Below are positions 1 through 61,068 of a DNA stretch of 64,000 nt, one piece after another. Made by a program: the position numbers and the translations under genes. Origin of the DNA: Moniliella sp. 'wahieum' (lineage: Eukaryota). The stretch is taken from contig RSEE01000029.1 of the NCBI GenBank assembly GCA_003971905.1, forward strand, positions 496,001 through 560,000, in the 5' to 3' direction. Below the pieces are notes generated by a model that was not told the DNA's origin, did not search any database, and worked only from the letters and a program-made list of their open reading frames with translations. Position 1 is the stretch's first letter. Every line of letters starts with the position of its first letter.

Positions 1-343
1 TTCGGCGGATGCGCGGGGGGTGGAGGAGACGTTCCGTGCGAGTCGGGTGTGAAGCTTGAAGCTTGAAGCTTGAAGGTGATAGCAGGATGCATGAAACGTG
101 AAACGTGAAGAAGGTAACAGAGGGCTTGGTCGACTCGACAGAGACCGTATCAACTGCCTCGCCAGAGGGGTAGGGGGTAGGGGGAGGAATCTACACCTGT
201 GTAGAGGTAGGAGCGCAAGGTGGACTATAGGTTTATGTTGTGCCATGCCTACCCCCATCGACCGCATCCTTCCACGCGCCCGTACCGGTTACCGACTCTT
301 TCTTTACACTATCCAATTCAATTTAACCCTTGGCACAAAGGAT

Positions 344-463
344 GACAGGTGCAATCTCCCTAGCCAAGGGGAATGGACAGGTGCGATCTCCCTAGCCAAT
401 GTGACTGGACAAGGTACAATCTCGCTAGCAAATGTGACTGGACAAGTGCATCTCGCTAACCAA
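344..463. repeat. ~32-33 bp minisatellite, about 3.7 copies (GACAGGTGCAATCTCCCTAGCCAATGTGACTG-like)
   Basis: Units start at about 344, 376, 408 and 441; lies just downstream of the Zn2Cys6 gene. Confidence 0.85.
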
Positions 464-502
464 GACCGCTACCGCGTACCGGCACTCCCGTCCCCTTATA
501 CC

Positions 503-644
503 TCACGTGTGTCGCGGGGGGTTGTGGTGGGAGGCCGAACCAGCCGAACCGGGCGCTTGGTGATAGAGTGTAAACCCACGAGGCTTTGCACGAGGGTTGG
601 GCGTACGCTTAGCCTCCGACGGAGACAGGGACTTAGACGGAGAC

Positions 645-727
<83 letters not shown>

Positions 728-4427: not shown

Positions 4428-7400
4428 GGTGCGGGGGGGGGGGACGGGCGGCGGCAATGGAAAGAAATGGAGAGGGAGATGGACAGAGGGATGGGATGAG
4501 AGGGATGGGATGGGATGCAAAAGGGAAGCGAATGGGATGGGATGGGATGGGGCGACTAGGCGGAAGGCTGGCGCATAGGCGAGCGGTGGATTGGGGCAGA
4601 GTGGGGCGGAGTGGGGCGGAGTGACGGAGTCAGAGTGGTGTCGAGGCAGAAGAAGAGGGCTTGGGCTGCTCGGCTGGGGGAAGAAGGTGGGCCGTCCAAC
4701 AGAGACAGGGAAGCTCGCTTGAGGCACTAGGTCTTAGGGGTTGGGTGAGGTCAAGTTAGGCCGTAGGCCGTACGGCAGTAGAAGGGTGCCTTGTGCCACC
4801 GCTCTGCAAGCCCAGAGAGCAGTACGCCACGGTGTCTCTCACTCCTCAGAACTCAGATCTCAGATATCACCCCTCTCACACATCCAAGCTCTTCCCCGAT
4901 CGGCCCTCGGGCATCATCTAAACTATCATCACCCATCCCACGTGGCACACAGTGGCTGGCGCCCGCCCCATCGAGTACGCCTATATTATCGACCCTAGTA
5001 GTACACTCAGGCCTGAAGGAGACAGGACGCACTCAATACGCACAGGGTTGCTATTAGCTGGTTACTAGTTACTGTGGTGGTACTAGAGTGCTAGCTGCTC
5101 ACCATGACGTGCATGATGAGTGACGATAATGAATCAGGCCGTGCGGCAGCCCGCCACACGCTGCCGCACGGAGGGAGAGTTGGACGTTGATCGTGACGGA
5201 GTGATCAAGAATCGGAGGTGTGGGCTGGAGAGATGGAAAGGGCCCTCGGTGCCGGGAGCTTGGTCGGAGCTAATTTAGCGCTTAGCGCTTGTTTCGCACC
5301 TGGAATTGCAGCGTTCCCCCATTCAAAATGGTCCCTTGGAAAGCTTGAAGTTTGATGGAGCAAGGGAGCGTGGAGCCACACTACGCCAGGCCATGCCTGC
5401 GCCCGCTAGGCCCTGTTAGGGCTGGGATCTAAAAGATCAATAGGGCGGCCCCTCCGATCGGGCCGTCCGTCGACACAGCAGGGACGTCGATCTCCAGCCT
5501 TCTCCAGCCGCTCCAGGGAAGCAATCACATGTCACACCCATCACCAGGGACTTGTGCCTGTCACATGTCAGTGCACCCGTGCCCCCCCAGCCGTATGTGC
5601 CCTCCTGAGAGTTCAACGTTGTACATTTTACGTTACGCGTTGCGCGTTACGCGTTACCGCGTTACCGGTTACCGGTTACCCAATTTCCCGTTGAATTTCT
5701 TGCAAGCATCTGGCATCCCAGCACAGACAACTCCAGGGCCTGTCCAGGCTCCACTCCCCCCTCGCCACTCCCCCCCGCCACTCGCCACTCGCCACTCGTC
5801 ACACCGCCACAATGCATCGCTCTCGTGCGCTCTCCAGTCTCCGCTTTCGCTTCCGTATCGCCGCACGGCCCCACCGCCACCCGCTCTGTGGCAGAAAAAA
5901 GGGTCACATGGGGTCACAAGGGTCGTCGGTGCCACGGGTGTCACCGGTCACCGGTCACCCATCATCGATCTCCACGACCCAGGGGGCCCAGAGGACTCGT
6001 ACGCAGTACGCAGGGCTCAGTACGTCAGTACGTCCAACGAACCGTCAGTACGTCAGTACTGAGACTCAGTACGCAATACCAGTACTTGCATTTGTACACA
6101 ACCCTCTCCTCAGTACATGCCCAGTGCCCAATCCTCAAAAAGAAGAGTACTGGAACCTACTCAACGTACTCAACGTAACGTTCAATTGAATAATGAACGC
6201 CACCCGAGACCCTCCCCTTCCCTTCGGCAGCGCCTTCCGCTGCCCTGGAGGAGCGGAAGAAGCCTCTCGTCGGCAAGGCAGACCGACTGGTACGTATACT
6301 CTGCCCGCAGCAAGTCCTCAGGCCTTCGCTCCTCCAGCACCTCCACAACCTCCAGCACCTCCACAACCTCCAGCACCCCATCCTTCACCATGGCCGATGG
6401 GCGCATCCAGCTGCACACGGGTGCTTAGCCAAAGCCTGCCTACACGCCAAGCGTTTACTAGCTTGTAGCAAAGCTTAATAGCGCTTACTGGATCATATAC
6501 TGGTGCCCGCAGCGGGCACAGTGCTGTGTGGTGCGGGGGACCGTCGGCACCTGGACCTGCCTGGACCCGTGCGCCGGTGCACGGGCCGTGGCGCCCGGGC
6601 CCAGACCCCTCCAGCGACCCTGTAACGGCGAACCGGAAAACGTTAAAACTTGTTCCGCCGTACGACGTTGACGAGATTCAGCAGTTCACACCATTAAACG
6701 TTAACCCTCCGTTTGTTAACCCTCCGTCAACAGCCTGTATACATTTCTACTACGGTCCGATAACTCAACACTCAACGTTCAACGACCCAAAGTCCAGCGC
6801 CCAATAACGTCCAAAACGTTCGACTAGGGGAACGCACAACGCGGTGTGCTGCCAATTTCCAACCGAGAGCTCCGTTTGAATGTATTTTGAACGTGTGTCC
6901 AACGCAAACCGCCGAGATGGTGGTTGCGGCACACACAAAAGGGCGTACCGCGCAGCGCGTAAGCGCTGCTCAGCTTGAAGCTTGATCGAGGATCCGAGTC
7001 TGAAGAGGACGTCGGGTGCTTCAGCGCTTGGGTTATCCATTGTGAAGCTTGAACCCTCCTCAGCACCTTTGGACCTTATATTAGCGTTGCACACGAAGCG
7101 CGTCAGCTGAGATGTTGCGTCGGTTTTTTTCCCTTGTGGAAACATGTGCAAGCGCAAGTGTCGGTTAGCGGCTGTAGTGGACTATGCTCCGTTGGTGCAT
7201 GATGTATGATGTGTGATGAATGGTGTTTTCTGGATCCTTGGATCCTTTTGGGCTTGCAGCTTTAAATTTGAGCGCACATTTAAGGTTTGCCCGAATCACG
7301 GATTCAGACAGGGTGTGCATGGGTGCTTTTAGGCCTTAGTCTGCCTTCGTTCAGCGCTCAGCTCAGCCAAGCGTAGCCTTTGTAGGCCTTATTTGTAGCC

Positions 7401-7829
7401 TAGGGCGTTTTTAGGGTTCTACGATCCTAATATCTCAACCCAGATCTCGAGCTTCTCAACACGCCAAAAAATCTTATGATCGTGATCCCATTGTGTATCT
7501 GCATTTTGCCGTTTACCAATCCCAAGCACAAATCTATTTCCTACGTGCGAATTGCTCTGTTGGACCCCTCACGCTGAGGCCCAGGCTCAGGGCTTCAGGG
7601 TCCTCATGACCTCATGTTTTCACGCTCCGCGTCGGAGATCATCGATCATCGATCCTAGCACTAGCGATCTGTTTTACTGCATCAAGCTTCAAAAGCTTCA
7701 AGCTTCCAGCTTCGCATGCCCCATGCCACATGTCGCACTGGGGCGCGTCTGTGCCACAGGTAGTATACGTTCGGCCGAACAAGACCGACAACTGAGGCCG
7801 AGAGCCTACTTCTTATATACTGTTGGGCT

Positions 7830-8486
7830 TACATGTTACACAAGAGATTAAAAGTACACGGCGACCACAAGACCCGCTGGGCTTGCAGAGAGGACCTGAG
7901 GAACGTTGCAATGGAGGCGGGCAGTGTGATCCGGAGCAAGGGAAAACCCATGGTGGCCGCTCCCTGTTGCACATCAAACACGCGCACCGCCCCGTTCGCA
8001 TACCCTGTATACAGATGGTTCCCATTCGAGCTGTACTAAGCACCGATCCCACCTCGGACGACGGAGGTAGGAGATCGTGGAAGAAAACGTGTGGCTCACC
8101 TGCTGTGTGCGCCAAGAGCTCAACGCGACCATCGTCCGTGCCAGGCCAAGGGCCAGCGCAGGTGCATCAGCAGGGTTGACGTGCTGGAAGGTCGTATTGA
8201 TGGGGCGTGTGGGGGCGCGGGGGGCAGGCCTGGAGCGAGGCAGCGTACACGCACGTCTGTAAGCTCCAAGTCGCGGACAAGAGTGGGCCGTGTGGCCCGA
8301 CGCGGTAGTAAGGGCAGAGGCAGGTGGGGAAAAGAGGAGAAGACTCGTACCGGGTCCTTGCTCGTATGGGCCTTGGGGTAAGTAGCCAACAGGCTCATGT
8401 CGGTGCAACTGCAAGTAACTCGGTGTGCCTTTGATTCCCCGGCGGGACGGTCGTCGTACTTCGGGCGCCGCTGTGGACTTGACCAT
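7830..8486 (-). CDS. Possible short WD40-repeat-containing gene or gene fragment
   Basis: Minus strand at ~7965-8030 reads SNGNHLYTGYANGAVRVFDVQQG, a WD-like blade. Candidate GTACGA and GTGAGC donors are present, and the ATG at 8486 is divergent from the gene at 8899. The frame cannot be closed without assuming indels. Confidence 0.3.
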
Positions 8487-13251: not shown

Positions 13252-14006
13252 GGCCAAGGCTGGCTGGCCCGTGGTTTGTGCCTCGCCTCTCGTGCCCCAC
13301 GGCACTCTCACGAAGCTGGTGGTACTATGTGCATTGCATGAGACTCGTGACTCGACTGGACATGGACAGCCCTCTGGCGCGGCCGCATTGGCGCGTGGGG
13401 AGGGAACGTGAGAGACACGGAGGGACGTGTGTGCGAAGGGCAGGGGGGACGGACGGGGTAGACCCTGGCGCTCTGCACAACATAGAGAGAGGGCGTGCGG
13501 GGGCAGAGGTGGAGCAGCGGCAGGCAGCGGATGGGAACGGAAGCAGGCGGCGTGCCTGGGCAGACAAAGACAGGGGGGCTGGCGGCGTAGCTGGTGGGAC
13601 GTGCGTCAAGAGCTAGCTTCGCTTCATGTGAGATCGAGAGAGGAGACTAGTAATAGTAATGATGGACCCCCAGGCGGCAGGACGCGATGCGCCATCGATA
13701 ATCGATAATCGATAACCATCGTCATCATCAATCAATGGGTTGGGGCGCGGCTGTCCATGCATGGGTTAAAGCATTAAGCACGTGCGATTCGATTCAAGTC
13801 CGTCGGCCTTCCCCCCGCACAGGGCCAGTCTCCGCGCCGTCAGCGGCTGATTTGGATTGCCAGCTAGACGTGTTGCATCCGCCAGGCCACCTCCTACTAC
13901 TTGTCGCTTCGCTTGCCGCTTGCCGCTTTGACCTTGCCGCTTTGACCTGAAAGCTTGACGCTTGCCCCCCCCCCCTCCCCTTGCCATCGCCACCGACCCG
14001 ATCAGC

Positions 14007-15585
<1,579 letters not shown>

Positions 15586-16086: not shown

Positions 16087-16201
16087 ATCAGGATCAGGAT
16101 CAGGATCAGATCAGGATCAGGATCAGGATCAGATCAGATCAGGATCAGGATCAGGATCAGGATCAGGATCAGGATCAGGATCAGGATCAGGATCAGGATC
16201 A
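16087..16201. repeat. (GATCAG)n microsatellite overlapping the VPS24 3' end
   Basis: Directly visible. Confidence 0.9.
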
Positions 16202-17150
16202 CCGCGAATGAGACCTTCGAGGGCGGCTTTCATCCTCTCCATATCCTCTGGCTCCTCTGGCTCCTGCGCCAGTTCCGGGCCCTCGAGCGAGCCGAGCTCG
16301 GCAGTGGATTTAGCCTGGCCGAGCTTGCCATCGGTGATTTCGTACATGATCTTGTCCACCTCTTCGTCCGCCTCGGCTTCCAGCTCCTCCTCATCTTCCC
16401 CAGCGGACCACTTTCCAGTGTCGTCCATCATCTCCTCCAAAATACCAGCCTGAGAACGAACATCTAGCGCGTTAGTACACTGCATTGTCTTCCTGCTTTG
16501 GGGATCGGAACCAGGTCCAGATTGCAGATTGCAGAATGCAGATTGCAGGTTGCAGGTGCAGTGCGCAGTTCGCAGTTCGCAGTGTGCAGTTCTGTTCCGT
16601 CCTGGGTCCGGGCCTGTTGTGTACGACCTGTTTCTTCGCTGCTCTGGCGCGGGACGTACCTTCATCATCTCCTGGCTCATCAAGCGCATGGACTGTTGCA
16701 GCTGGGGCAAGCGGATGAGCTGGTTGGACAATTTCATCACCTCAGCCGACTTTTGCATGGCACCAGTGACTTTGAACATGGCCATTTGTTGTTGGAGCTG
16801 GAGCTGGATCGAGTTCATGCGTGCCTTACCTACGACCAGGCGTTGGCGGCGGTGGCGTGCCAAGGCAATTTCCTTGGCGAGCATGCGCGCATTCTTCACG
16901 TCGCCCTTTTTGGCGAGCCGCTTAGCTTCGGCCTTGGTCTTGGCGCTGGATTGGTCCAGGGAGCGGATTTCGCGGTCGAGCGCGCGTTGCTCCGAACGCA
17001 GTTGGGACTGCACGCCACGCACCCTCTCTGTAGCACGCGACGGGTTAGCTGGGGCTCGGGCGAGGGGGGGAGTACGCACCCTCTTGGGTAGGGCCAAAGA
17101 GGAAGCGCTGGACAGATTGCATGGCAGCAGCGCGATGCGATGGGGGGGGG
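16129..17150 (-). CDS. VPS24: ESCRT-III subunit Vps24/CHMP3 (Snf7 family)
   Basis: QLRSEQRALDREIR, AKKGDVKNARMLAKEI, KARMNSIQLQL, MSQEMMK|AGILEEM with an intron at ~16451-16659, EADEEVDKIMYEITDGKLG. First exon not resolved. Confidence 0.92.
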
Positions 17151-17573
17151 GGGGGCGGGGATGTGGGATGTGGCGGTGGCGGCGGCGGTGGGGTGGGTGG
17201 GTGGGGCTACGCCAGGCGGAGGCCAGTTGGTCGCTCTGCTGGTGGCTGCCGTCCACGTCCAAACGGTGACTATCGATTGGGCTGCAAGCTTGAATATTGA
17301 AGCTGCGTGTCGATAGCAGGGGCCACCTGTGGGTTACGAGGGTGGCGTGTCACAGCCTCATCACATCCCCAGTCCCGCCGCCGACTCACGCGCGGGCGGG
17401 TGTGACGTAATACTACGTCATGGGTGTGGCTGCGTCATGCCATTTTCATAACCTGCCGCCTCGAAGCTGCCTTTTAACTAACCCATCCACAGCTGCCCAT
17501 CGGCCCCCATCCGCCCCCATCGACCATCGCTGCCGGGCTGCTGCCACCACGCCCGCTGCCTGTGCTGCGCACG

Positions 17574-19535: not shown

Positions 19536-20057
19536 GCGATGGCCATCGTCCCGCCGCGGTCTTTCGTCGTCCCGAACATCGCCGCCTCGACCCGGAGCGA
19601 TGCTGCTCCGGCTGTGCATGGCCATACCCATCCCGCCGCTCACCACCACCGCCTACATTGCCATCTGCGACTCTCTTTTGATCGCATCGCTTGCATTCCT
19701 GCGGCCAACATGTCATGTCATTGTCTGTGCCGTGTCCGCAGCACGCAGAAGCGACGGGTTTAAGTAGACGCGGCCGCCACCCCCGCCAACTGACAGCCCC
19801 CGTGCCACGTGCACGCAGCGCCATGCAGTGGGGTGTCTTATGTCAGCAGAGCGCGGGCCGCCCGTTCCCGCATTACCGGTTACCCACCGCTTCCGTTGGG
19901 CCAGCCCGCACGGGGCACCTGCCCAGTGTGCCGCGGCTGGGGCTCAGCCAGGCACCGCCCCCACCCCCATCCCCATCCCATCCACATCCACCCCGCGTCT
20001 TCTTCCTCTTCTTCCTCTTCTTCCTCTTCTCCCTTTCCCCCCTCACCCCCACCTCCC

Positions 20058-22105: not shown

Positions 22106-22655
22106 CTTAGCCCGAGGCTGGCGGTGCGAACGAAATGAGTGGATAAGCTAGCTTCAAAAGGAGATGGGGGAGGGGGGGGGGGGGTTGGTGCGGAGGAGAG
22201 GAGCGGTAGAGGTAGAGGTAAAGATAAAGGTAAGGTAAAGGTAGGAGTTGAGGTAGAGGTAGTAGAAAAAAAAAAGGGGGCAACAGAGGGAAGCAAGGAA
22301 GGAAGGAAAGGAGGAAGGAAGGAAGGAGGAAGGGACCTCAAATCCGGCGCAGCCCAGCACGGCCACCGACCCACCAGGGAATTGGTCGCAAAGGGGTGGG
22401 TACGAAAGACGAGGGTGAGGTGCGGTGGTGGGGTAGGTATCGAGGCGATCCAAGCGGGAGAGATAGGCCGTTGCACAAGCCGGGAGGGGAGGGGACGGGG
22501 GTGGTGGTGATGGGGGGCACAACCCATGTCATCCCATCCCATGTCATCTCATCCCATCCCATCCCATCCCATCCCATGTCATGCCATCGCATCTCATGCA
22601 ATCGCCCCTCTGTTCCGCCCCGAGGGGCATTACAGGTTGGCATCTTCGATCGACT

Positions 22656-25600
22656 CTACCGGGTCGTAGCCGGGCAAGCGGTTCTTGTCCAAGGACGGGT
22701 CGGTGCCCGCGCTGGTAGTGGAGGAGATGAGAGGCATGAGTAGGTGCGCCGAGCGGGATGTCGGCTGGGTTCCAAAACGAGCCGGAGGAGGAGAGCCGAA
22801 GCCGAAGCGGAAGCTGAAGCTGAAGCCGTAGCTGAAGCTGAAGCCGAAACTGAACCTGAACCTGAAGCTGAAGCTGAACCTGAAGCTGAATGGCCCGGTT
22901 CGTCCGAGGAGAAAGAAGTGTCGGACCTGCGTCGGCTGCTGCGTGAACTAGCGCGTAAGGTCAAGCTAGTTCGTTTGGATTCCAATTGGACCAACGTTTG
23001 TTCGAGTTGGTGTTGGATGCGAGCGATTTGATCGGCGACGACGGCGGTACGTTTTTGGACTTCGGATTGGATGCGCTTCGTCCGTCGATGCATGGCCTTG
23101 CCCCGATCCCACATCTTCATCTAAAGTGCAAGACTCATTCTCGATACGCCAGCGTCGGCATGACCGTCGAAGGAACTACTTCCGATCGCGCCGCGTGCGG
23201 AGAGGGAGTCGGCAGACCGATGGCCTTGGCCTCGCGGTAGAGTTTCTTCCAGCCCGCCAAGGGAGGGGAAAGAAGTGTGTCCATGTTGGGACGAAGGGCC
23301 GAGGGAAGACGCTGGGGGTAGTACGTCCTGTGCGCCATCCATCAACGAGCGCATTTCCACCCATCTGTTCACGTTCAGAGCTGAGGGCGCGCATGGCTTC
23401 TTGCATCTGAGCGAGTTGGGCTTGAGCTTGTTCGCGTGCGGCCTCAGTTTCCTTCAACTGAGTTTGGAGGGCAAAAGTTGCCAGTCGCGCTGGGTGAGCG
23501 CACGAGAGAGACTAATGCTCTCCTTACGTTGTCGATCAAGCCGTGCACGTAACCCCGTAGCTTCTGGGTCAACGAGCGACCAAAGACTGAATTTCATCCA
23601 CGCGTTCCCGCCACGTTTCCGATTCAGTCAACAAAAATACCAGCCGCTTGTGCAGTCGTCCAATCCTACTCCAGCCGATCCCTCGTATCGACAAACTCAT
23701 CAATCCGCGTTCGCACCGTCACCTCTGCCTCGGTCGGCGCAGCAGGTAAGACCATCTTGTTCTTTTTGCGTGTCAAGCCAGCTTTTTCCAACACGCTACG
23801 CAACGTGCCTGATCGCGGTGCTTCACCCAACGCGCGGTCCAACGCACCAAACACCGCACACGCGTCCCACCACGTAGGCGGGGCAAGTGGGTCGGGACTG
23901 TCTTCCATTTTGCTTAGCGGACGGAACGCGCCCGAGGGAAAGGCGACAGTCAATTCTTTGCTGCGTTTGCCGGTTCCACGTTTTCATGCTTTCGGGGAAG
24001 ACGGCATAGAGATGGCGCATACGACGAGCACGCAGTGCGCCAGTGGAAGGCAGGTGCGCAGGGAATCGTTTGGCTTCAACACGGTTACGATCTAGATCGA
24101 CAATGCACACTTCGGGACCCAAGGTGAGCGAAGGCAAAATGTACGTTGCGACACCGATGAGCCAACTGCCTGGATCGGCACAGTGGAAGCGCGCGTCACG
24201 CGCATGACAGGTAAAGTGTACTGCGCCTTGCCAGCTGCGCAGCCCGACCAACGTCTCGGTCGTGACGACGGCCAAGCTGCCAAAGATTCGTACTGCGACG
24301 TGAGAGGACTTGCCGCCCGGGCTCAGGGCCACTTCGCACAGGGTCAAAATGTGGTCCAGGGCCAAGGTTTTAAACAGGGGCCAAATGGCAAAATCGCAAT
24401 TGGCTGCCAACTGGCGGGGAGCGCCTTGTTCGCCCCAACAGTTGGCAGGCGGCAGAGGAAAAGGCTGGTAGCTTGCAGTGCCATCTCACTCTCTGGACCG
24501 GGAAGCACAATGGGCCAACCGGAAGGCGGGGCGGGCTGCTCCAACAGACGCAGCATGAGCGTTGGTGCTTGTCCATCTGACGACTGTACAACAACCAGGC
24601 GAGCTTGTTGAGATCGCCAAGTAAGTTGAACAGCGGGTGGATGGAGAGGAGGCAGAGCGCATAGGGAATGTACAGTGGTGCACCATCGTCATTGCCAAGG
24701 GGGAGGAGGAAGTCTGCTTGGCCAGCTCGGTTCGAATGCTCTCTCTCCGCTGTGCATCAGCGGCCGACCAGACAGTCAAGACGACGCCATAAAAGCGCAC
24801 GGTCCGCTGGGCGGCAGTGAGGCTGCGCAACGCCTTGCCAGGCTGGCTTGGCGCTTCGATGGGTGCCTGGCAGTTGAAGAGGTGCAGACGAGCTTGAGGT
24901 TTGGGGCCAGCCATAACCTCGACTTCGCGGGTAGTAAAGACAACTTGAGTGCTTTGGCCATCAACTTGGACGTTAGCACCCGATCCGTGCCCCCGGCACC
25001 ATTGGGATCTCGATCAGCTTGGCCGCCTTGTCGGGCTCGGTGGCGGAGGTGTGGACAGAGGAGGCAGAGCACCCAAGTACTCGGGCCGCCAGAAGCGCGG
25101 GATGGCCGGGGGTGTGGCTCGTGCCCTGCACCGAGTCGGACTCGGTCATGGTCCACATCGAAGGAGGCCTTGGGTAGCTACAAGAATGGTGGTGCAACAG
25201 GCATGCCGGTCAGATCTCAGAAAGCGGAGGAGAGGATGGGAGGGGGGGGATGGGAGGGGGAGGCAGGCAGGACGTACACCAAAGATAAACGAGAGCTGGG
25301 CCAAGGTGCTGGGTTTGTGGGCGGTGGCCAGGACCTGGTTTTCGACGCGGATGCGCGCCTCGAGGCCGAGATGGGCGGGTGGGAGGGGGCGGAGGAGGGC
25401 AGGGGGCCCGAGTAGGGCGACAGGGGCTTGGCTGGGAACGCATTCACGCGGCCGAGAGGCGGAGGGGGAGGAGACGGGCACGGCCGAGGGTGGGTCGGCG
25501 GGGCGGGGGGGGGCGGGGTTGTGGGGCCGGGGATGGGGATGGGCGCTTGGATTTGGACGTGGATTTGGATTGGCAGGGGCAGGGGCGGGGGGGGCGGCGT

Positions 25601-34748: not shown

Positions 34749-36261
34749 ATGGGCTTTCCCGAGCGCTATGCGCTCGACAACACCCCATCGTCCACCGTCT
34801 CCCGCGGGCAATCAACCCCGTCGTCATCTGGGTCACACGCATGCTGCTCACCCTGTGCATCTGCGGTCTCTCGCTCGCCGTCCTGGTTGTCAGCTGCCTC
34901 ACCGTCAAGGTAGGTCCCCCCCCCCGCATGCACGACCTGCGTTCCTCTTGCCCCGTCCCTCCTTGCTGACCCTCCTTGTAGTGGTACAACGACAATGATC
35001 CTATCGTCAAGCCCTCCTGGGGCTCTCTCATCTTCCTCATCATCCTCGGTGTCTGCACCCCCCTCATCTACTTTGGGTACGACGTCGCCCTCCCTCTCGC
35101 GCCCTTTGTCCATCCGGGCGACATCCTGTACTGTCTGCTCGACGTAAAGGTCGAGATTGTGCTCCAGTTCTCCATGTGTGTCTTGTGGGTATCCGGCACC
35201 TTGGCCTACTTTGAAGATCTGGGCGGCAAGGAGGCCTGTACCTTTGACTCGTACTACCACTATGCCAAGCCGAACGACTTCAACCATGTGTGTTCCCTTC
35301 GCGACTTGGTGTGGAAGTTGTCATGGGCCACGTTTGCTATCCAGGTTTTCCTCTTCTTTTTCGAAGTGCTCGCCGCTGCCTACATCTTTTTCTTTCTCGA
35401 TCAGGAGGTCCTCAACGAACCTCACTATACCTGGGGCAGGAGGGCGTACGACTTTCAAAAGGGCCGTCGTGCTTCGAAACAAGCATCACGCGCCACGCGT
35501 GCTAGTCGTACCCCTCCCCAATATGCCTACAAGGATCACCCTCCTGCTTCCTATCGCCGTGCCGCCCCATACCGCGATTCTTCGCGAGACTACGACCGGC
35601 GGGACTACGACCGGCGGGATTACGACCAGCGGGACTACGATGAGCGAGATTACGATGAGCGAGACTACGATGAGCGAGACTACGATCCTCAGGACTACGA
35701 TTCCGAGGAGTATGAGCTCGGGACTACGATCCGCAGGACGTTGAGGATGCTCATGAGCATGCTGGCTCGGTCGTGTCCCGCTCGACGACCCGGCACTCGC
35801 GTACGTCGGCCCGGCGTGGCGGCGGGTACAATGTAGGTACTCCAGCGGAGCCTACGCCATTTGAGGAGGAGATGCACGAAGCTGGACCCTATGTCGGTGA
35901 GGACGAGTGGGTTGGACGGTCGAGTTTTGCGAGCAACCGTGAACGTGGGTACGAGGACGACGCGGGTCTCCACTCGCCCGACCCCTTCGTTCCGGCTCGA
36001 GCGCGATCGCAAGCTCGTCGCGGGTCTGCCTATTCCGACCGTGGAGGCTCGCAAGCTGCCACATCGCGACGCGGGTCGTACTCGGACCTGACTTTACGCT
36101 CAGCGCCTCGTCGACAAGCTAGCGGCGCGTCTCACCGCCGGGGAGCGTCGTATGCATCGGAGCCACCTGCTGTGGACGAAGAGAGCGAGGTGGAAGATGA
36201 TTTACCTGCGCTCGGTACGCGCGGTCGACGGGCGTACCTTTCTGATTCAGATGAGGAGTGA
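34749..36261 (+). CDS. 4-TM MARVEL-like membrane protein with an RDYDx-repeat, Arg/Ser-rich tail
   Basis: Four hydrophobic segments, a Cys pair in the loop, intron ~34909-34981, and a charged tail with one indel near 35720. Confidence 0.6.
35585..35718 (+). repeat. 15-bp coding repeat (CGNGACTACGAYNNN) encoding about 8-9 copies of RDYDx
   Basis: RDYDRRDYDRRDYDQRDYDERDYDERDYDERDYDPQDYDSEEYE. Confidence 0.9.
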
Positions 36262-39300: not shown

Positions 39301-42113
39301 GGCTAGCGTGCTGTGGCTAGCAGTCGCAGTAGCAATAGCGGCGGTAGCGTTGGTGGTGGGGGACCAGGGGTCGTGGGGTGGGGGCGGATCGCGTGGGCCC
39401 AGGTTAAAATACGTGTGTGTAGCCCCTGGAGCAAGTCTGGGGCCTCTCCATAACCCAACAATCACGCGTCATGACCGATGAGTCGGTGGCTCAAATCATG
39501 AATGACTTTAATGACTCGAATGCGGGCAGAGCAGTGGTGGCAGTACCAGTGTGGCGCAGTGGCTGCCACACCGTCCCACCCGGGAACACTGTTCCCACAC
39601 CGAGGGGGACAGTCGTCGGTGCCCTGCGCCTGTGTATAAACGATCTGGTGGGGAAACACCGGGCAACGTCTTTATAGCCTCTTTTGTCGATGGCTAGCCT
39701 GCTCTGCTCCGTTCCGACGCTCACTTGGCCGATCCCTTAGTCCCTGCGGCCTCTTGTCATATGCAATGCACGTCGTATCTGCCTTCTTGGCCATTGCCCG
39801 GTACATTATATACGCAGTCTTGATTATATGATAGGCATACTAACAGGCTCAGCGCTCATTACGCATTACACAACTGTGGGGAGGAAAATGGCACGGCAAA
39901 AATGGTATACGCGGAAGCTGTTAGTTGAAGCTTAACCAGAAGTGGAGAACAGTGTCACAGTCGCCCCTGGATGCATTTGCCCTTTGTGGTTCTCTCCCAC
40001 CAGGCTGAGATCCTAATTTTGGGACTCAGATGTGAGTCATTTTATTGCCGTATGTTCTTATCGTATCCTGGTCCGGCTCACGCGGCAGTAGTTTCCTGAC
40101 TCTTGCAGGTCGCTCCTCAAAATGCCTTGCCTTTCCTCGTTCTCCTTCTACTTTCACTCGAGGCAACTATTCCTCCTCTTCTCCTTGCATTCGCAGATCT
40201 GCTCTCTGCCCCCCGCCTTTTCGTCTGCCAACTACGCGTGTCTCTCAGCTCCCGTTTTTTTTTCAGTCTGGGGCGTCTCGCTCAGTCCTCGACCTTCCCT
40301 TGGACCACCCAGTCCCTGGCGCCCCTAGTCCCACTCCTCAGTCCCATCCCCCGCTCCACAATCTCAATCAGAGCAGCGTTGTCCCCCACTGTCTTTTTTC
40401 CCATCCCCGAGTCCGAACGGCTGGAGCCATGTTACTATTGTCCCGACGAGTGCATACCTGGCAATCTTGCTACCCAAAACCGCCACTTCTGCTTGGTTTA
40501 GTACATACGCCCAGAGGCCTCTTCTTTTGTCCCTATTAGCTCTGCTCGGATCCACCATCAATGTCATCTACCAACATCCCACACGCAGCCTCGCAAGTTG
40601 GAAAGAGGGTGTACGCTTCATCAGTGTTGTGCAGGGCGCAATGCGCATCGCTTCGTCCCCAAGCTGCTGGTGCCACTCGCCCCCAATACTTCGTAGTCCC
40701 CCCCCCCCCCATACGCTAGACCTGACGAAAGGTCCACTGATGAGTGTCTGTTGTAGAGCCGAATCTAGGATCCTTCCAGGGAGAGGAAAGTGAGGAATCC
40801 TTACTGGTACAGCGCCTCTGGTCATGCAGGGTTCTTACACCAGAACGATGCCGGCCCATCAACAGCTCCAGGTGGTCGGGTGCAGCCACGCACAGGCACC
40901 ACGCTGCTGAAGGGAAAGGGGACGGGAACGAATGCGCATCCCATATACTCTCTGCTTCTTGCTTACTGTGCCAGTCCTCGTTAATCATTCCTGGCAGTAT
41001 ATCTTCATTGAATATTAACATGCAGTGCAGTGTGGAACGTGTGTTGGATGGGGGGCCTTTTGTCCTCGCGCGCCGCCTCTCGCACCATGTGAGGCGGGAG
41101 GTGTGGTACTGTGGTTACGCTGGTGGGTACAGGATGCATCCAAGGGGAGAAAAATATACGCTGCGTCTCAATTGCATCGTGTTTGAAATGTAACTCTTTC
41201 CTGGTTGCTGCAACCGGTTGCGCACCTACCCCGCGCGTCCATCGCATCGGCCGGATCCAACAGGCCTTTTTGCTGGCATGTGGCAAGCAGCCCGTGTGCA
41301 CCACACGACACATGCGTACTGGTACTGAGTACTGAGTACTGGCAATGCAACCAAGAGGGAAGATGGCTTTGGTGAAGCAGCGGGCGGGCTGGGTACTGGG
41401 TGGTCAAGGGCGAGTAGGTGTACGTCTGCTTTGAATCTCAGCTCTCGAGATGGGGGTCTGGGGTCTTGGCGCTCTTGGCGGGGGAGGGTGGAAGCAGGGG
41501 CATGCCACCAGGGCGGCGAGGGGCTAGTGACATGTGACAGCTGTGCATGGTTACGTACGTGGGCGCTGGAAAGCTAACGCTTGGAAAGGAAACAGGCAGG
41601 CTGCAGCGTTCCTGGCTGCGGGCTCCTCCCCGCTTTGGCATGGCATGTCCCCGCCGCCGCCGCACGCCCAGCGGCAACTGCGCCCTGCATGGCGCGGGTG
41701 TGAAAGACCGCCCAGGCACCGCAGAGGGGCAGTGTCGCCGCGCTGGCGGGTGGTGATCGTGATCGATTGATCGCGATCGGCACAATGCGCCTCTGGGCAC
41801 CAGCGCACTGTCCCGTGTCAGCCCTCGGGCGGCAGGGCAGCCGGCAGCTGGATCCATTTGGTAACCCCGCACATGGGCAGACGACTGGGCAGACGACTGG
41901 CGCTAGCCTCGCCGCCTCGGTTTCTCTCCTCGCACATCTCACGCTGCGTCCCGCCCGCCCCCGCGCGAAGAAAACACTGTCCCCACCCCATCTGCATCTG
42001 CATCTGCATCCCATCTGCATCCGCATCTGCATCCTCTTCTCCTTGTCTGCGTTCCCCTTCCACCTCCTCCGCTCTCTTATTTGCCTGTCCTGCCTACTCT
42101 CCTCGCCGCCGCC

Positions 42114-42527: not shown

Positions 42528-42558
<31 letters not shown>

Positions 42559-43847: not shown

Positions 43848-45364
43848 TTGGTGCGTATTGCGTATTGCGTATGGTGTACTGCGTATGGTGTACTGCGTAC
43901 TGCGTGCTGCGTTACCCTTGGGACGCTGCGCCGGTCGACTCTCGTTGGAGCAACGGCTTGGCTTCATACCCACGAACAAGGGAAGAAGGAAGCAAGCAAC
44001 GGCAGGTCTCATGTGACATGTGAACATGTGAACCCGCGATGCGATGGACCGAACCGTTAGCTTCCTTGTCTCGTTACCTTTTTTTCGCCGGGTGGTCTCT
44101 CTCGTTTTAGGTACCCTTTTATCATTGTCCTTTCCCCTCCTACCCTGTGCCGCTGCTTTTGAACCAGTGCTCTGTATTATGTTCGTTCTCTCTTGGCTGT
44201 GTGTGTTGGAGTGGTGGGAGTGGGTGGTGCGTATCTTTGGTTTGCAGTTGGTTTCTTATCTTGCTTGGTTTGGGCGTCTATCCCCAAGTACTGAGAGGTG
44301 CCCCTCCTTTGGGTGCGCGTCTATATCCAATCTTCACGCCCAGAACGATGTACGTTTCGGAAGTTCCCACAGTGCGGCTGATCGTGCCCAGCCACACCGA
44401 CCGTTCCCCTGGAGAAGCAGAGAAGCGCGGGTTGGGCAGACTCTTGGGCCGATATTCCATGCGGCAGATCCAACTCTGTGTTGGCTGTTCCTCGGTAGCG
44501 TAGGCTGCTACCCGTCGCACATGCATATCCGTGCTTCTGTTGAGCGTGTGTCGGCAAGGGCTTGTTGCTTGCTGCTATGCATTGCCTTGGAGACAACCGC
44601 CAGCGAGGCAGATCGAAGTGCACTGACTGGGCGTCGGCTGGATGCGGGATGGATGATGGATGATGGATGATGGATCATCGATGCAGCTGCACGTGGCACG
44701 CGTGGGCGTGCGGATCGCCCAAGCCCACCGCACCGCCGCAGCCTGCAAGCAGCGTAGCTGCCAGAGACGCATGGGGACGGGGGCAGTGTGGGGGGCGGGG
44801 CGGAATAAGAACAAAGGAGGGGCACCTGCACAGGGCGAGTGTGTGCACGGGTGAGTCCTGCGTCCCGAGTTGAGGCCTGAGGCCTGCCTGAGGCTCAGGA
44901 CTGCTGGGTGCTGGGTGGCGGCCGCATTGAATCTTCACTTTCAATGGTTGCGTCTGGCTTGGGGGCGCAGGGGGCGCAGGCGCGGCGGAAACGCAGAGCG
45001 GGTGGCTGGGTGCTGGCCCAGCACTGGCCCAGCCAACACGCCGGCGGGGCGTCGTGACGGGTGCCATCACGCGTCACGCGTCAACCGCCACACATCACCG
45101 GTAGTGGCGTGGGCGATCACGCGTGGGCTTGGGGCGGTTGAAATTCACTTGGGTTGGCCCTGGAGCAGGAGGAGGGAGGAGGGAGGAGTGGCGAGGCAGC
45201 ACTGGGCGCGTAATCATTATCACCGCTCGCCCGCACCGCCGCCCCTGGCCGCCTCCAGCTCCCGCTCCCCCTCCCGCTCCTGCTCCCGCTTCCCCCCGCC
45301 CCCCCCATCCTCCGACGGCAGCCAGGCCGGCATGGCTGCTGCTCCGCCCCACCACCGCTAACCC

Positions 45365-53287: not shown

Positions 53288-53729
53288 TGTCTTGCACCAA
53301 TATCATTCGTTCTGTGATTGTGGTTGTTGTGGTTGTGGTTACCGGTTACCGGTTACCGGTTACCAGTTATGGCTGTGCTCTTGCGTGAAATTCACTGTTT
53401 TGTGTTGCTTGCCGTGACGAAGATGGCCTCTCGTACCTCCCTTGACCTCCCCCACCCCCATCGTTCGCAGGCTTGAGCCTGAGCCTCAAACCTCAGGCTG
53501 ACGCCTCATCGGCCCAGTACTCATGTCCTCAGCCAGAGTCCTCAGGCTGAGGTGAGGTCTCATGGGATCATGGGATCATGGATCATGGATCATCCGGCAA
53601 ATAGGACCCTCGGTACACCCATCCCACAAAGTTAGAACCGGGAAGCGGGAAGCCCAGCCACGCCCCACGCCGACTAAACGCCTACGTGCCAAATATCATG
53701 TTGCCGTTCACTTGGTGGGGGTACAGTCT

Positions 53730-53790
53730 GCTACAGCTACAGCTACAGCTACAGCTACAGCTACAGCTACACAGCTACGCTACAGCTACA
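53730..53790. repeat. (GCTACA)n microsatellite
   Basis: Directly visible. Confidence 0.9.
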
Positions 53791-54791
53791 GGCGCATACT
53801 GGACGGGAAGCTGGACGTGGAATGCAGTGCATTGTGTTGGGGCCAGTGACTATTATAGTGAGTGCATCGGGTGGTGTTGTTAACCCATGGTCATTTGTGG
53901 CCAAGGTCACTTCTATGCATCTCCAGCTTGAAGCTTGAAGTGACGTCGTGTGTGTGAGTGCGTGATGTTTTTTCTGACGTTTCCGACTGTATGATACCTT
54001 GGATTCGCCACCCCTTCGCACTTTGATCTCCATCGACCCCCATTTTTTGCGGCTCTTGAGCTGCTCCTAGGCGTTTAAATTGGGGCCGGGCAGTCATTTG
54101 GTTTGGATACGTGGATGAGCACAACGGCGTCGAAGGACGCTGAAGCGCCGACGCGCCGATGGAGCTGATGGATTTTGAGATCGGATGGGCAAAGGGGGTC
54201 GGACGACGGGATGGCTGGCTGGTCCCAGCGCCACGTTAGGCCGCCCTCGGTGACATGATACGGCATGTGACATCAGCGCTCAGCACGTCACGCGCGTCAG
54301 CCCAAATGTCGGCGCAGCCTGCCTCGGCATCGAGCCTGCTCAGCGCGTCAGCGACCCACGGCATTCTGGCTGGCCGAAGCCAGGCCCCATTCCCATTCCA
54401 GAGCGCAGACAGGGGAGATGGGGGCGGAATGCTGAGGTAAGTTATGCGCACCTCGCGTGGCGTTTTTAGGCGCAGCGCAGGACCTGTACCGAGGTACTGA
54501 GGTAAGCACACGGCCGGGGTGGCACGTGCGGTGCCTTCTGTCCGCTGCGTCCCTTTGGTGCGCTACGGCCGGCAACGTCCGATGGCGCGGCATGCGCGTG
54601 TCAGATGTTCGATTTGCGGCGTTCGATGTTCCATGTCGTGCGTCAGCGCGTCAGCTAACCCAGCAGCTGGCCAGCAACCAGTCCGACGGCGGGAGGTGGA
54701 CGAAGCTTCAAAACTCCATCTCCCGTGTTTCCCTTGCCACCACCACCACCCTTCCCGTCTTCCTACAACTCCCTTTGCTACACCATCCACC

Positions 54792-56031: not shown

Positions 56032-56294
56032 GTGTGCATTCATGCATCATGGTTCTTTCTTTGCCCTGCATTGCGCCCTGTATCTTTGTCGTCCTACAAG
56101 ATACCTCAATTCATCTTGCGCTATCGTATGCTATTTTCCCCCTCGGGGCCCATAGGCGCTAAGCCTCAGCCGTGGTAGAACCGGATTGGTGCAATATCTG
56201 CGGGACAGTGATGGCAGTACGGATGGAGGGGGTTGGGGTGGGGGGGCTACTAATGCGTGGGAGGGGCCGATGTGACAGCCATACGGGGGAGAAA

Positions 56295-57726: not shown

Positions 57727-58296
57727 GATGGACGCGGGGTCGCGGGGTGGCGGCGGCAGAGGCAGAGGCAGAGGCGAAGGAGAGGCTGCGGCCGGCGCAA
57801 CACTCGTCTGGGGGGCGGTGGCGGCGCAGAGCAGCGCAGGCAGCAGAACCGCGCAGCGCAGGCGCATGCAGCCGCAAGCTTCAAGCCCAAGGCGGCGGCC
57901 CAGCCGGCGCAAGACACACGCAAGACACGTGCGGCCAGCGAACGCCCCCCAGCGCCAGTGTCCGCTGGGCGCGGCTCGGCGCCACCATTCCATATTCCAC
58001 TCGCATTCCGCAGCACACGCGCTCCTTATGTAATCCACTCCCTCCCGCTGGTGCAGCATGTGACGTGGAAGCAGGCCGAAGTCAGGCCTCAGGCCTGCCT
58101 CAGGCCCCTCAGGCCGCCCCTTGAGTGGTCCTGGACGAGTCATGTGCTCCGGTGGGGCTGCCACGCTGTGCGGCTCCAGGCTGCTCCAGCCCAGCACGCC
58201 CGCCCTCCCTCCCTCCCTCCCTCCCTCTGTCCTCCCGGCCTCCACCCACCACCACCACCACTCCTACCTTCTCTTCTGCCACCGTCTCCCATCGCT

Positions 58297-58940
58297 ATGA
58301 CCGCCACCACCCCTGCCCCCGCCCCGGCCGCGGCCCCTGCACCCGCCGCGGCACAAGCCCCGCCCCCGATGCTCAACCGCGACCTGGCCATCAAGAGCGT
58401 AGAGCACGCCCAGACGTATTACAACATCCTCGAGGCCATGCCAGGCCACAAAGTCCACCTCACCCGCTTTGACGATGATCTCTACCGCGACTTTCTCGAG
58501 GCCTTCCCGGAGCTCGCTCCTCCACCCAGGGCGAGGAGACTGCGGACCCCGTCAGCACCATCACTGAGTTTTCCGTCAAAAGCCCCGAGGCTCAGCCCAA
58601 GTGGCAGGCCTTGGCGGCCAAGTACGCCGACAAGAGTACGTCCCCCCCTGTGTCTTCTTTTTGGGGTTTTGTTTCCCACACGACCTCCCCCCCCCTGCTG
58701 CTCCCCCACTAATCCGGTTCTGTTTCCCGTACCAGTTTCTGGGCTGCGCGATGGCACTCTGATCCGCAACAATGTCAACCAAGAGTACACCAGACCAACA
58801 CCATGTTCCTCTGGCGCATCCAGTTCTACTGCTACGAGATTGCTCGCAACCGTCGCGGGCTGAATGACTGGATTTTCGTCAAGGAGCAGCAAAATAAGAA
58901 CAAGGTATGTACTTCTCCTCTGGACCCCCGATCCCTATGA
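58297..58940 (+). CDS. PBDC1: PBDC1/YPL225W-like (DUF757) protein
   Basis: AIKSVEHAQTYYNIL, LTRFDDDLY..F...FPEL, GTLIR, RIQFYCYEIARNRRGLNDWI. Confidence 0.88.
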
Positions 58941-61068
58941 GAACGGGCATTGGAGCGATCGGCGCCCGAGTCATCGAGCAAGTGCACAGCAGGAAAGGAG
59001 ACGGGTTGTGCCTTTCCTCTCTCTGTAGGCGCTGAACATTGAACCCTCAAAAGGGGGGCCATGCCAAAGCGCAAGGAACATCGAATGTGCGATCGGGAGC
59101 TAACTGTGGTTGCGTTTTCCAGGCCAAATCGTCTTGAAAGTCTGCCTGAACCTCTTTTTTTCCGACCCATGCATGGACAGCAATGGTATATTTCTTCTTC
59201 TGCTTCTCTGCCTATGCGCGGGCGATTTGGTGCATGGGTCGGCACGGCACCCCTCCCTGCTCGTGTGTTATGTCGGCCCCGTGGCCTGAAGAGCTGGGTC
59301 GTCAACGCGCCAGCCATGATGTCCTGCTTTTGCAGACCAAAATGACTTTTGAACAAGGCAGTCTTTTGGGTGTTTGTATGCAGTTAGCAAAAGTAACGGT
59401 GTGCGACCGTTTTGCTGTACATATAGCACAGTCGAGGTGTTGCGGCGCACTAGGGATCGATAGTCCCAGTAAGGAGGGGCGTGCAGATCAGAAGGACTCT
59501 CAGATCTCAGATCTCATAGAGATAAAGTCTACCACGTTTGCTATCAAAGCGCTAGGAACCCCCTGCCCCCACCCTATCCACCTTCGAGGGCAGCGAAGAA
59601 GAGCGGCGGAATTAACGCGTAGCGGTAATGATTAATGACATGTGGCATGTGACATGTGACATGCATAGTGAGGGATGTGGCTTTTGAAATTTGAACCGCC
59701 TGATTACTAGAAAGAGCAGGATCAGATCGATCTTCATCAAGTACCGAGGCCCTACCTAATCGAATCATCGGTAATCGACGTAAAAGATATAAGTCGATCA
59801 AGTCTTGTAGCTTGAAGCTTATAGCTTGAAGCTTGAAGCTACAAGCTGCGAGGTGCACCTTGCAAGTTCTCAAAGCGCTGGTGGCCAGAGAATTGGGTTG
59901 CGGTCAAGTCAAGCTCACAGTCTGCCTCAGAGGCTCGTGGGGAAGGTACAGATAAGCGAGAAGCAAGCGTAACGCGTAAGTTGTGCCGCACGCGGTACCT
60001 GTGTGACATGTGATGGATTGTCGCCCTATCAAGCTTCAAGCTTCAAGGTATGGGTTTATCAATCATTGATGATCGATGATGCATGATGCATTGCCGAATT
60101 ATCGAGTGCGGAGCATCCTGTAGTCGGTTCGAATATGAAATCTTTGGGCAGGTCATCGATAGCCTTGCCATGTGGTATAGCACTGTGCGGACGTGGCTGC
60201 TGCTGTGTGGCAGGCTGTGGCCTGCTGCGCCCGGCCACCCGCTCGACCCTTCTGGGAGGGCCGGTGAATATTGAATCGATGGAATCGAGTACCGAACGCA
60301 CGGAATACATACAGCGCAGTGGGAATGGAACCAAAGGTTATGATCGATGATCGATGATCTGAGTCTGACATCGATGAGATGCAAATAAATTAACCACAAC
60401 TGAGACGCAGGCACCTAAGCGCTGCGTACTGCGCGGCTGATTGCAGTCTAGTGCCTGCCCCGCTGAGTGGGCGCGCGCCCTGCTGGGGCGCTGGACTGCT
60501 GTGGTATCCAGCTGTGTTTCCCAGTGCCTCATCGGAAGATTTACGTACGAATCACCCTACCGCCCAAGGGCGTGCTAGCAGAAGAAAGTGCCCGAGGGCG
60601 AGTGCCGAGGGACTGGCATCTTGGTCAGGCCCCGTACGAGGCTTCCCGGAGTGTGTCCCTGTGCGGCGGAAGGAGGGTGGAATTGCCCGTGATACGGGGA
60701 TGCAAGGCGTGCGCCACAATCACTTCGGTGGCAGGTGGCGTTTTGTCTTCTTTGTTCCGTCGCACAGATCCAGCGCATCATGCATCGTCACCATCATCAT
60801 CATCATCATCCATCCAGCTATCAAGCTATCATTCACGTTCAGTCCCCCTAGCCTAGCAGTAGCTTGCCCGGCGACGGACGGACCAGTCGCAGCCACTGGC
60901 GGCTAGTCTCTTCGCTAGCCAATCAGTCAGCGCTGCGCCACTCAGCCGCTCAGCGTCCGTTTTCATGCATCATGCATCATGGCTGAACGTTGAACCTCCC
61001 TCAGATCTGGCCTCGACCAGCAATGGCAACATGCGCGCCTCCTGACCACCCCCCCACCATCTTGAGGT

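Follow-up and report, generated by a model that had tools for sequence, protein, structure and literature searches.

Classical hAT transposons duplicate 8 bp of their target (nTnnnnAn) and form a hairpin that is offset by one base; the hairpin model for hAT excision, with its palindromes of P nucleotides, is said to go back to Coen in 1986 and Zhou in 2004. RAG and Transib duplicate 5 bp; the coding joints of V(D)J recombination vary widely and do not form tandem repeats. Topoisomerase II makes staggered breaks that are filled in and rejoined to give duplications of 2–4 bp, and the excision of Helitrons in maize leaves footprints of TA repeats. Here we analyse short tandem arrays with a 7-bp period in a 64,000-nucleotide stretch of a fungal genome (Moniliella sp. 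'wahieum', contig RSEE01000029.1, positions 496,001 to 560,000; hereafter the window). Their repeated unit is a palindromic hexamer that begins with A and ends with T, followed by one spacer base. We tentatively read these arrays as scars that a hairpin-forming transposon left at its donor sites.

Excision through hairpins on the flanks is attributed to hAT, Transib, RAG and MULE in the available part of one source (PMC5499845). Footprints of Ac/Ds in fungi, according to the accessible text of another, carry P-nucleotide palindromes, fall into one or two predominant joints and frequently show microhomology, and 28 types were found among 128 events for hAT footprints in Candida albicans (PMC5873905). 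Two basidiomycete DNA transposons, hAT7 and Kyakuja, make 7-bp target-site duplications, as excerpts of their description state (Kojima 2025, PMC12730594). This is the length that an excision reading of the arrays needs, and the hAT7 superfamily excises via flank hairpins. However, the same excerpts place the two families in Pucciniales and Laccaria, not in Ustilaginomycotina, and give neither a target consensus nor footprints (PMC12730594). No copy of either was found in the window.

The arrays share several features with the footprints of Ac/Ds, Tam3 and Hermes, as far as the available accounts of these go: both copies of a duplication appear to be kept, the bases next to the element appear to be replaced by a palindrome templated on the flank, microhomology favours one or two joints, and non-coding DNA ends up with a short tandem duplication. 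The classical hAT palindrome has at its centre the complement of the base next to the element, and its spacers would be complementary, whereas the arrays are even-centred, with identical spacers and a T-N-A core. Published hAT footprints are also heterogeneous in those accounts, whereas one type dominates here. With the P nucleotides of V(D)J joints (RAG/Transib) the arrays share even-centred zero-loop palindromes templated on the flank and would share an unoffset hairpin, opened a few bases from its tip; we know of no joints of this type in smut-related fungi. With topoisomerase II, a staggered break is filled in and its ends are joined, which leaves a short tandem duplication that is exact, but its duplications are plain, 2–4 bp long, and follow neither a palindromic filler nor a T-N-A rule. 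Helitron excision leaves a short tandem repeat behind where the element sat, but the unit is TA, the enzyme is of the HUH type and there is no flank-templated palindrome. What would be new relative to the known hairpin-type footprints is the target rule, the near-deterministic joint and the high density.

We searched the literature, also with literal array strings, and found no description of the rule; most subscription journals lay outside the coverage of this search. A preliminary description of the window had stated that no named element fits, and the search bears this out. A paper on mitochondrial 'palindromic microsatellites' is unrelated to the grammar, judging from the part of its text at hand (PMC7218506).

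A period-7 grammar with a T-N-A core

The arrays are known here from the assembled sequence of one 64-kb window. In this window, perfect primitive runs with a period of 7 and a length of at least 14 bp number 63. A cyclic 6-bp palindrome is present in 29 of them, and all 29 palindromes are of the form A-NNNN-T. The observation is real, and stronger than the preliminary description had claimed. In forty Markov-3 simulations of the window, period-7 runs averaged 4.2 and palindromic ones 0.55, with none A-first. The 10-mer with identical spacers, TsA-bcc'b'-TsA, occurs 71 times versus 1.6 expected, while its C-, G- and T-first analogues stay at background (9, 8 and 4 versus 6.5, 5.2 and 1.4 expected). 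No comparable palindrome class was found in the window at periods 5, 6, 8, 9, 10 or 11. The variety of hexamers is real and larger than the 12 of 16 counted at first: 15 of the 16 possible A-NNNN-T hexamers are represented in arrays of at least 10 bp, and only ATATAT is absent.

Describing the unit as a palindromic hexamer plus a spacer hides the informative structure. The basic object is a 12-mer: a 5-base direct repeat, TNANN, whose two copies are separated by two bases, the reverse complement of the two that end the repeat. Arrays take the form TsAbc(c'b'TsAbc)n, and maximal runs tend to begin at the T before the spacer and stop two bases into the hexamer. We scored canonical 12-mers with complementary first and third core bases. 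The T.A core occurs 84 times, C.G three times, A.T once and G.C never. TNANN direct repeats at a spacing of two number 110 (ANTNN 42, ANANN 25, TNTNN 40); the filler is the exact reverse complement of the last two repeat bases in 84 of the 110 and is one mismatch off in a further 16. When repeat lengths of 3–7 were combined with filler lengths of 1–5, palindromic fillers were in excess only at 5+2 (132 versus 80 expected) and 4+3 (111 versus 34 expected), two combinations that both describe the TNANN-filler-TNANN object.

The palindromes themselves are in excess. A-first 6-bp palindromes number 265 versus 176 expected, and T-first ones 176 versus 168 expected. The A-first excess is about the number of array units, and the palindromes were therefore probably created de novo by the event rather than present beforehand. 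A simple fold-back or template switch, one of the explanations first put forward, predicts complementary spacers and hence perfect ten-base palindromes. These are rare: the complementary-spacer form TsAbcc'b'Ts'A occurs six times (a small excess over the 1.8 expected) versus 71 for the same-spacer form, and perfect ten-base palindromes number 74 versus an estimated ∼62 (64,000/1,024).

Array lengths cluster at 7n+5. There are 60 arrays of at least 12 bp in the 64 kb, locally up to ∼4 per kb in some spacers; 24 have a length of 5 mod 7 and 16 a length of 6 mod 7, or 40 of 60 together versus 17 expected. Nineteen of the 24 arrays with a length of 5 mod 7 lie in one of the two canonical phases, one for each strand, where ∼7 are expected, and the canonical core plus 0–2 bases matched by chance fits 35 of the 60. 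Among 37 oriented arrays, 27 have n = 1 (1.7 units), seven have n = 2 and three have n = 3. Their outer positions show a weak symmetry, with G at position 2 in 15 of 37 and C at position 6 in 16 of 37, which fits a dimeric enzyme on a 7-bp site. No flanking conservation was seen around the oriented arrays.

As read from the letters, each event is shown to amount to xyTsAbc becoming xyTsAbc + c'b'TsAbc, or the mirror xyTsAy'x' + xyTsAbc, with a net gain of 7 bp and the central T-N-A retained; the ancestral single-copy state would be xyTsAbc, as we infer. In three compound arrays (60070-60091, 30411-30429 and 5631-5680) a change in the repeat is matched in the filler. One substitution followed by further events suffices to explain these changes, whereas slippage would require paired compensatory substitutions.

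The arrays are listed below by coordinates, strand (where one was assigned), hexamer and spacer base, with n as in the formula above.

50-75, plus strand: AAGCTT plus G, 26 bp, n = 3, canonical phase (5 to 2)
283-294: ACCGGT plus T, 12 bp, phase 6 to 3
4852-4865, plus strand: AGATCT plus C, 14 bp, phase 4 to 3
5061-5073, plus strand: ACTAGT plus T, 13 bp, phase 4 to 2
5275-5290: AGCGCT plus T, 16 bp, phase 5 to 6
5525-5536, plus strand: ACATGT plus C, 12 bp, canonical (5 to 2)
5559-5570, minus strand: ACATGT plus C, 12 bp, canonical on the minus strand (3 to 0)
5631-5680, plus strand: compound, ACGCGT plus T changing to ACCGGT plus T, filler following the repeat; perfect runs 5643-5657 and 5661-5680
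5940-5959, plus strand: ACCGGT plus C, 20 bp, n = 2, phase 4 to 2
6772-6784, plus strand: AACGTT plus C, 13 bp, phase 5 to 3
6972-6985: AAGCTT plus G, 14 bp, phase 1 to 0
7351-7362, plus strand: AGCGCT plus C, 12 bp, canonical
7637-7654: ATCGAT plus C, 18 bp, phase 3 to 6
7682-7713: AAGCTT plus C, imperfect; perfect runs 7682-7692 and 7693-7706
7829-7840, plus strand: ACATGT plus T, 12 bp, canonical
13694-13715: ATCGAT plus A, 22 bp, phase 0 to 0
17290-17301: AATATT plus G, 12 bp, phase 4 to 1
19873-19884, plus strand: ACCGGT plus T, 12 bp, canonical
25210-25221, plus strand: AGATCT plus C, 12 bp, canonical
25857-25870: ACCGGT plus G, 14 bp, symmetric phase 3 to 2 (two full odd palindromes)
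26978-26992: ACTAGT plus C, 15 bp, phase 0 to 0
30411-30429, plus strand: AATATT plus C, next unit with two symmetric base changes; explained by one point change and two events
30504-30522, plus strand: AGATCT plus A, 19 bp, n = 2, canonical
31227-31273: AGGCCT plus C (31227-31239, imperfect to 31264) and ACTAGT plus C (31262-31273, canonical)
31315-31326, plus strand: AGTACT plus G, 12 bp, canonical
31336-31360: 14-bp perfect palindrome (31336-31349) abutting an array of AAGCTT plus C (31344-31360)
31641-31653: ATCGAT plus T, 13 bp, phase 1 to 6
34141-34153, minus strand: AACGTT plus C, 13 bp, canonical on the minus strand
34476-34490: ACCGGT plus G, 15 bp, phase 4 to 4
39847-39858, minus strand: AGCGCT plus C, 12 bp, canonical on the minus strand
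41322-41341: AGTACT plus G, 20 bp, phase 1 to 6
41527-41539, plus strand: ACATGT plus G, 13 bp, phase 4 to 2
44010-44032: ACATGT plus G, perfect 44010-44023, imperfect unit after
44871-44886: AGGCCT plus G, 16 bp, phase 5 to 6
45067-45083: ACGCGT plus C, 17 bp, phase 5 to 0
53337-53364: ACCGGT plus T, 28 bp, four full units, symmetric phase 3 to 2
53925-53940: AAGCTT plus G, 16 bp, phase 1 to 2
54273-54284, plus strand: AGCGCT plus C, 12 bp, canonical
56040-56051, plus strand: ATGCAT plus C, 12 bp, canonical
57875-57886: AAGCTT plus C, 12 bp, phase 6 to 3
58082-58106: AGGCCT plus C, 15 bp, then a 4-base insert and a partial unit
59498-59516, minus strand: AGATCT plus C, 19 bp, n = 2, canonical on the minus strand
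59626-59638, minus strand: ATTAAT plus G, 13 bp
59646-59663: ACATGT plus G, 18 bp, phase 1 to 4
59683-59695, minus strand: AAATTT plus G, 13 bp
59809-59840: AAGCTT plus G, two runs (59809-59820 and 59823-59840) with 2 bases between
59967-59979, minus strand: ACGCGT plus A, 13 bp
60002-60013, minus strand: ACATGT plus G, 12 bp, canonical on the minus strand
60029-60047, plus strand: AAGCTT plus C, 19 bp, n = 2, canonical
60068-60091: ATCGAT plus G unit changing to ATGCAT plus G units; last repeat base changed, later fillers matching the new base
60265-60276, plus strand: AATATT plus G, 12 bp, canonical
60340-60359, plus strand: ATCGAT plus G, 20 bp, n = 2, phase 4 to 2
60775-60786: ATGCAT plus C, 12 bp, phase 2 to 6
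60963-60981, plus strand: ATGCAT plus C, 19 bp, n = 2, canonical
60984-60995, plus strand: AACGTT plus G, 12 bp, canonical
63195-63207, minus strand: ACTAGT plus G, 13 bp, canonical on the minus strand

The arrays named in the preliminary description are present at, or within a few bases of, the positions it gave, with one exception: its AACGTT example at 31340 is part of the 14-bp palindrome at 31336-31349 and is not a same-spacer array. True AACGTT arrays lie at 6772, 34141 and 60984. The two AGGCCT arrays at 44875-44899 and 58086-58110 both consist of a full unit, a 4-base partial unit and a full unit, and here the simple model fails.

We considered whether the arrays could be ordinary heptanucleotide microsatellites, palindromic units expanding because slipped strands fold into hairpins that evade repair. 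The window is rich in microsatellites of every period, and slippage could partly have grown the arrays of 2–4 units. The longer arrays are able to fold into hairpins (−6.7 and −4.5 kcal/mol for those of 28 and 26 bases). However, 27 of the 37 oriented arrays hold only 1.7 units, and the 12-mer folds with merely −0.5 kcal/mol (z = −0.7; −0.4 to −2.1 for the longer arrays). With single-strand folds this weak, structure-driven slippage would be unable to initiate an array. Slippage also predicts a random phase, a free unit and even lengths, whereas the phase is fixed and 40 of 60 lengths fall at 5 or 6 mod 7. It explains neither the exclusive use of T-N-A over A-N-T (84 versus 1) nor the compensatory changes, the excess of A-first palindromes points to creation rather than pre-existence, and periods 5, 6, 8 and 9 show no counterpart. 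Thus, the view that plain slippage is inadequate is confirmed by the fixed phase, the core and the compensatory changes; the phase and core statistics largely refute the slippage-microsatellite explanation, to which we now give little credence.

Placement in the window and recurrence elsewhere

We mapped the 60 arrays relative to coding DNA. None overlaps any of the 6,058 Pfam-aligned bases, in agreement with the non-coding location first reported. Stop-free frames of at least 200 codons span 38,690 of the 64,000 bases (60%), yet only 15 of the 60 arrays lie within them. The arrays are clustered, and five of the 32 2-kb bins hold 38 of the 60: 14 at 4–8 kb, seven at 30–32 kb and 17 at 58–62 kb. 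Because an insertion of 7 bp shifts the reading frame, any neutral insertion process should spare coding DNA, and the exclusion is no evidence of function.

This bears on the idea that the arrays are selected cis-regulatory or chromatin elements, in which a protein would read T-N-A every 7 bp, or the shape of the palindrome, in promoters. The arrays are indeed non-coding and concentrated in a few intergenic regions, upstream regions among them, and the rule recurs in other genomes. Yet the frameshift alone predicts their absence from coding DNA. The 4-bp core is unconstrained (15 of 16 hexamers), most arrays hold just two T-N-A cores, arrays are found in either orientation, and many show decay by one mismatch (16 of 110). 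Flanking conservation was not seen and the folds are weak. The earlier proposal of a shape-read protein or chromatin signal is therefore unsupported, given the free core, the prevalence of 1.7 units and the weak hairpins, and we consider selected elements improbable.

We scanned metagenome contigs for one two-unit array and obtained at least 121 loci. Of these, 120 were analysed (588 kb); L020 was left out, as it lies within L021, and no other orthologous pair was found among the loci. Canonical 12-mers other than the seed arrays are enriched for the T.A core, 38 versus 5.2 expected (∼7-fold), an enrichment that is conditional because the loci were selected for carrying an array; the other cores gave 13 versus 5.8, 7 versus 10 and 16 versus 12.4 expected. 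Among the matches listed, the seed arrays lean to the canonical phase: 67 of 150 strand-wise records have a length of 5 or 6 mod 7. One contig (L002; 8,591 bp, 44% G+C, two open frames of at least 120 codons) carries seven arrays of at least 12 bp besides its seed, with the hexamers AACGTT, AGCGCT, ATCGAT and AGTACT, a density like that of the densest spacers of the window.

As to the hosts of these contigs, L009 bears a fragment of a fungal-type haem-thiolate peroxidase (Pfam) and another locus a eukaryotic choline kinase; L075 is eukaryotic and perhaps from a basidiomycete. Two other loci, L040 (1-1061) and L012 (1-10203), carry clusters of AAGCTT-unit arrays with six and eight canonical sites, which may all belong to one dispersed or satellite repeat and not be independent scars.

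Could the arrays be an artefact of assembly or base calling? Their letters were taken from assembled sequence. We know of no sequencing error mode that writes exact 7-bp insertions with a filler that is the reverse complement of the flank. The arrays are missing from coding DNA, and the grammar is present in many independently assembled metagenome contigs. Both observations argue against an artefact, which we regard as extremely improbable.

Proposed excision footprints and a possible endogenous alternative

The explanation that we favour, with a confidence just short of even, is that the arrays are excision footprints, or donor-site scars, of a hairpin-forming cut-and-paste DNA transposon that makes a 7-bp target duplication at NNTNANN. 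Such an element would insert at this symmetric target and duplicate 7 bp. Its excision would leave covalently closed, unoffset hairpins on both flanks in the fashion of RAG and Transib, and a host nuclease would nick these hairpins 2–3 bases from the tip to give palindromic 3' overhangs, (A)bcc'b'(T) and (A)y'x'xy(T). The overhangs would then join in full overlap, or one would be kept and the other removed. End pairs of A:T and T:A would make both nicks ligatable, and replication would fix the canonical product or its mirror. Both joining routes would give exactly 14 bp and would account for both orientations and for the identical outcome of 2-base and 3-base P additions.

Repeated cycles would account for the longer arrays. 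Re-insertion and excision at c'b'TsAbc would add identical units and give lengths of 7n+5. As c'b'TsAbc is a perfect odd palindrome, it would be a better target than the first site, and this would account for the arrays with n = 2 and n = 3 and for clustering. Local hopping would produce clusters of scars in particular intergenic regions.

Two marks of a hairpin footprint are present. A tandem target duplication is retained, seen as the TsAbc direct repeat, the 7-bp period and the 7n+5 lengths, and can be written as 7 bp with two bases replaced or as 5 bp with two added. A zero-loop palindrome templated on the flank, as P nucleotides would make it, stands at the junction of the 84 exact TNANN repeats among the 110. 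Hairpin-type excision or repair scars were among the first candidates proposed, and the anatomy of the arrays supports them: the flank-templated filler, the fixed phase, the gain of 7 bp and the compensatory changes.

Several results weigh against a transposon. Pfam recognised no transposase domain among the 114 frames scanned of the 190 stop-free frames of at least 130 codons in the window. A repeat search and a scan with 7-mers only gave no convincing inverted-repeat element with a 7-bp duplication in the 64 kb. The 588 kb of metagenome loci likewise yielded no transposon, no transposase domain and no convincing element flanked by target-site duplications. Scar density is very high (60 per 64 kb), and the product spectrum is far narrower than that of published hAT footprints. 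Twenty-five of the 60 arrays lie outside the canonical phase. Other joints that hairpin opening might leave are not in excess in the window: plain 14-bp duplications show none (TNA in nine of 34 non-palindromic units, counted by eye, versus an estimated ∼9 by chance), 1-base P additions number 205 versus 209 expected, and joints keeping both overhangs, xyTsAbc c'b' y'x' xyTsAbc, number zero. The even-centred palindrome does not match the one-base-offset hairpin of classical hAT. To our knowledge, an NNTNANN target with a 7-bp duplication has not been documented. Finally, a target duplication of 5 bp (TNANN), with two P bases added on one side, would fit the letters equally well.

Two described footprint types were rejected. 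The classical hAT footprint, whose 8-bp duplication and one-base-offset hairpin predict a gain of 7 bp with complementary centre bases, is excluded as the spacers are identical and not complementary (71 versus 6); it also fails in that odd-centred period-6 units show no excess (48 of 473) and that the core is T-N-A, not A-N-T (84 versus 1). A PIF/Harbinger or IS5-like footprint, made of a 3-bp TNA duplication and remnants of the element ends, is excluded as the 4-bp core takes 15 values. In addition, the repeat continues two bases past the second TNA, and the phase runs from 5 to 2 in 19 arrays versus 5 to 0 in one.

A transposon may also not be needed. In a process endogenous to the host, an enzyme recognising T-N-A would make a staggered break, and hairpin repair would turn the break into a 7-bp palindromic insertion. 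Such an enzyme could be a domesticated transposase of the hairpin-forming kind, a novel nuclease, or a type IB topoisomerase or tyrosine-recombinase-like activity with cuts after T on each strand. The extreme uniformity of the product would suit such a process, as would a very high scar density in 64 kb where no transposon was found and the recurrence of the rule in contigs of 31–62% G+C. The T just before the centre on both strands of T-N-A would also suit an enzyme cutting 3' of T. However, we could not derive the 5-base direct repeat from a T-N-A break without a prior staggered duplication of 7 or 5 bases, as the insertion of a transposon gives, and clustering in a few spacers fits local hopping at least equally well. 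That we know of no T-N-A enzyme of this kind also counts against an endogenous process. We regard it as possible but doubtful. It appears somewhat less likely still that fungal cells possess a T-N-A-specific 'writing' activity that adds flank-templated 7-bp palindromic units at about one site per kb and is a major source of indels and new microsatellites in the intergenic DNA of several lineages.

Gene content of the window and implications

The window consists of intron-bearing genes and abundant microsatellites of all periods, with 259 tandem-repeat rows scoring at least 30. Its G+C content is 59% overall and 53–66% across 2-kb windows. Pfam identified genes for the 78-kDa subunit of NADH dehydrogenase (exons at 11.1–13.0 kb), Snf7, an ABC1 kinase, a glycosyltransferase, a DUF2828/DUF7788 protein, a secreted lipase of the LIP family, a protein kinase, a zinc alcohol dehydrogenase, PBDC1 and a DUF6533 protein. 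One exon of the NADH dehydrogenase gene (NDUFS1) is 77–78% identical to that of Ceraceosorus, Tilletiaria and Testicularia, the best named matches, and 88–90% identical to two other contigs. These identities place the host as a basidiomycete of the smut-related Ustilaginomycotina. The secreted lipase, 38% identical to its top match, was of no help for this placement.

Other repeats of the window stand apart from the arrays. Hexanucleotide microsatellites of ∼15, 20 and 16 units lie at 640-727, 16087-16201 and 22794-22890 and are unrelated to the 7-bp grammar. Tandem repeats of 32–33 bp (3.6 and 2.1 copies, 83–91% matches) occupy 347-463 and 855-923, beside the first 7-bp array. Homopolymers of G or C of ∼19 bases are found at 17142-17160, 22166-22184 and 42529-42547. 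A 15-bp tandem repeat of ∼7 copies, with super-periods of 30 and 45 bp, spans 35584-35739 within the open frame 34982-35836 and may be a coding repeat. Two perfect 14-bp palindromes, at 15327-15340 and 32965-32978, have their inner 12 bases in common (TGTTGGCCAACA), which may reflect a recurring binding site or chance.

If the arrays are excision footprints, they form a dense and readable record of past transposon traffic in a stretch where no transposon was found. Each scar would stand for one cycle of insertion and excision, and runs of scars for repeated hits and local hops, so that genome-wide footprint counts, made from the sequence alone, would gauge how active DNA transposons once were and which targets they chose. 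It would also follow that a whole class of heptanucleotide 'microsatellites' arises from hairpin repair and not from slippage. Under the same reading, the duplication of 7 bp at NNTNANN would be a new target rule and the outcome of repair would be near-deterministic, both of them testable. If no transposon exists, the signature would instead point to a novel sequence-specific mutational process, of wider interest for the evolution of fungal genomes and the turnover of their promoters.

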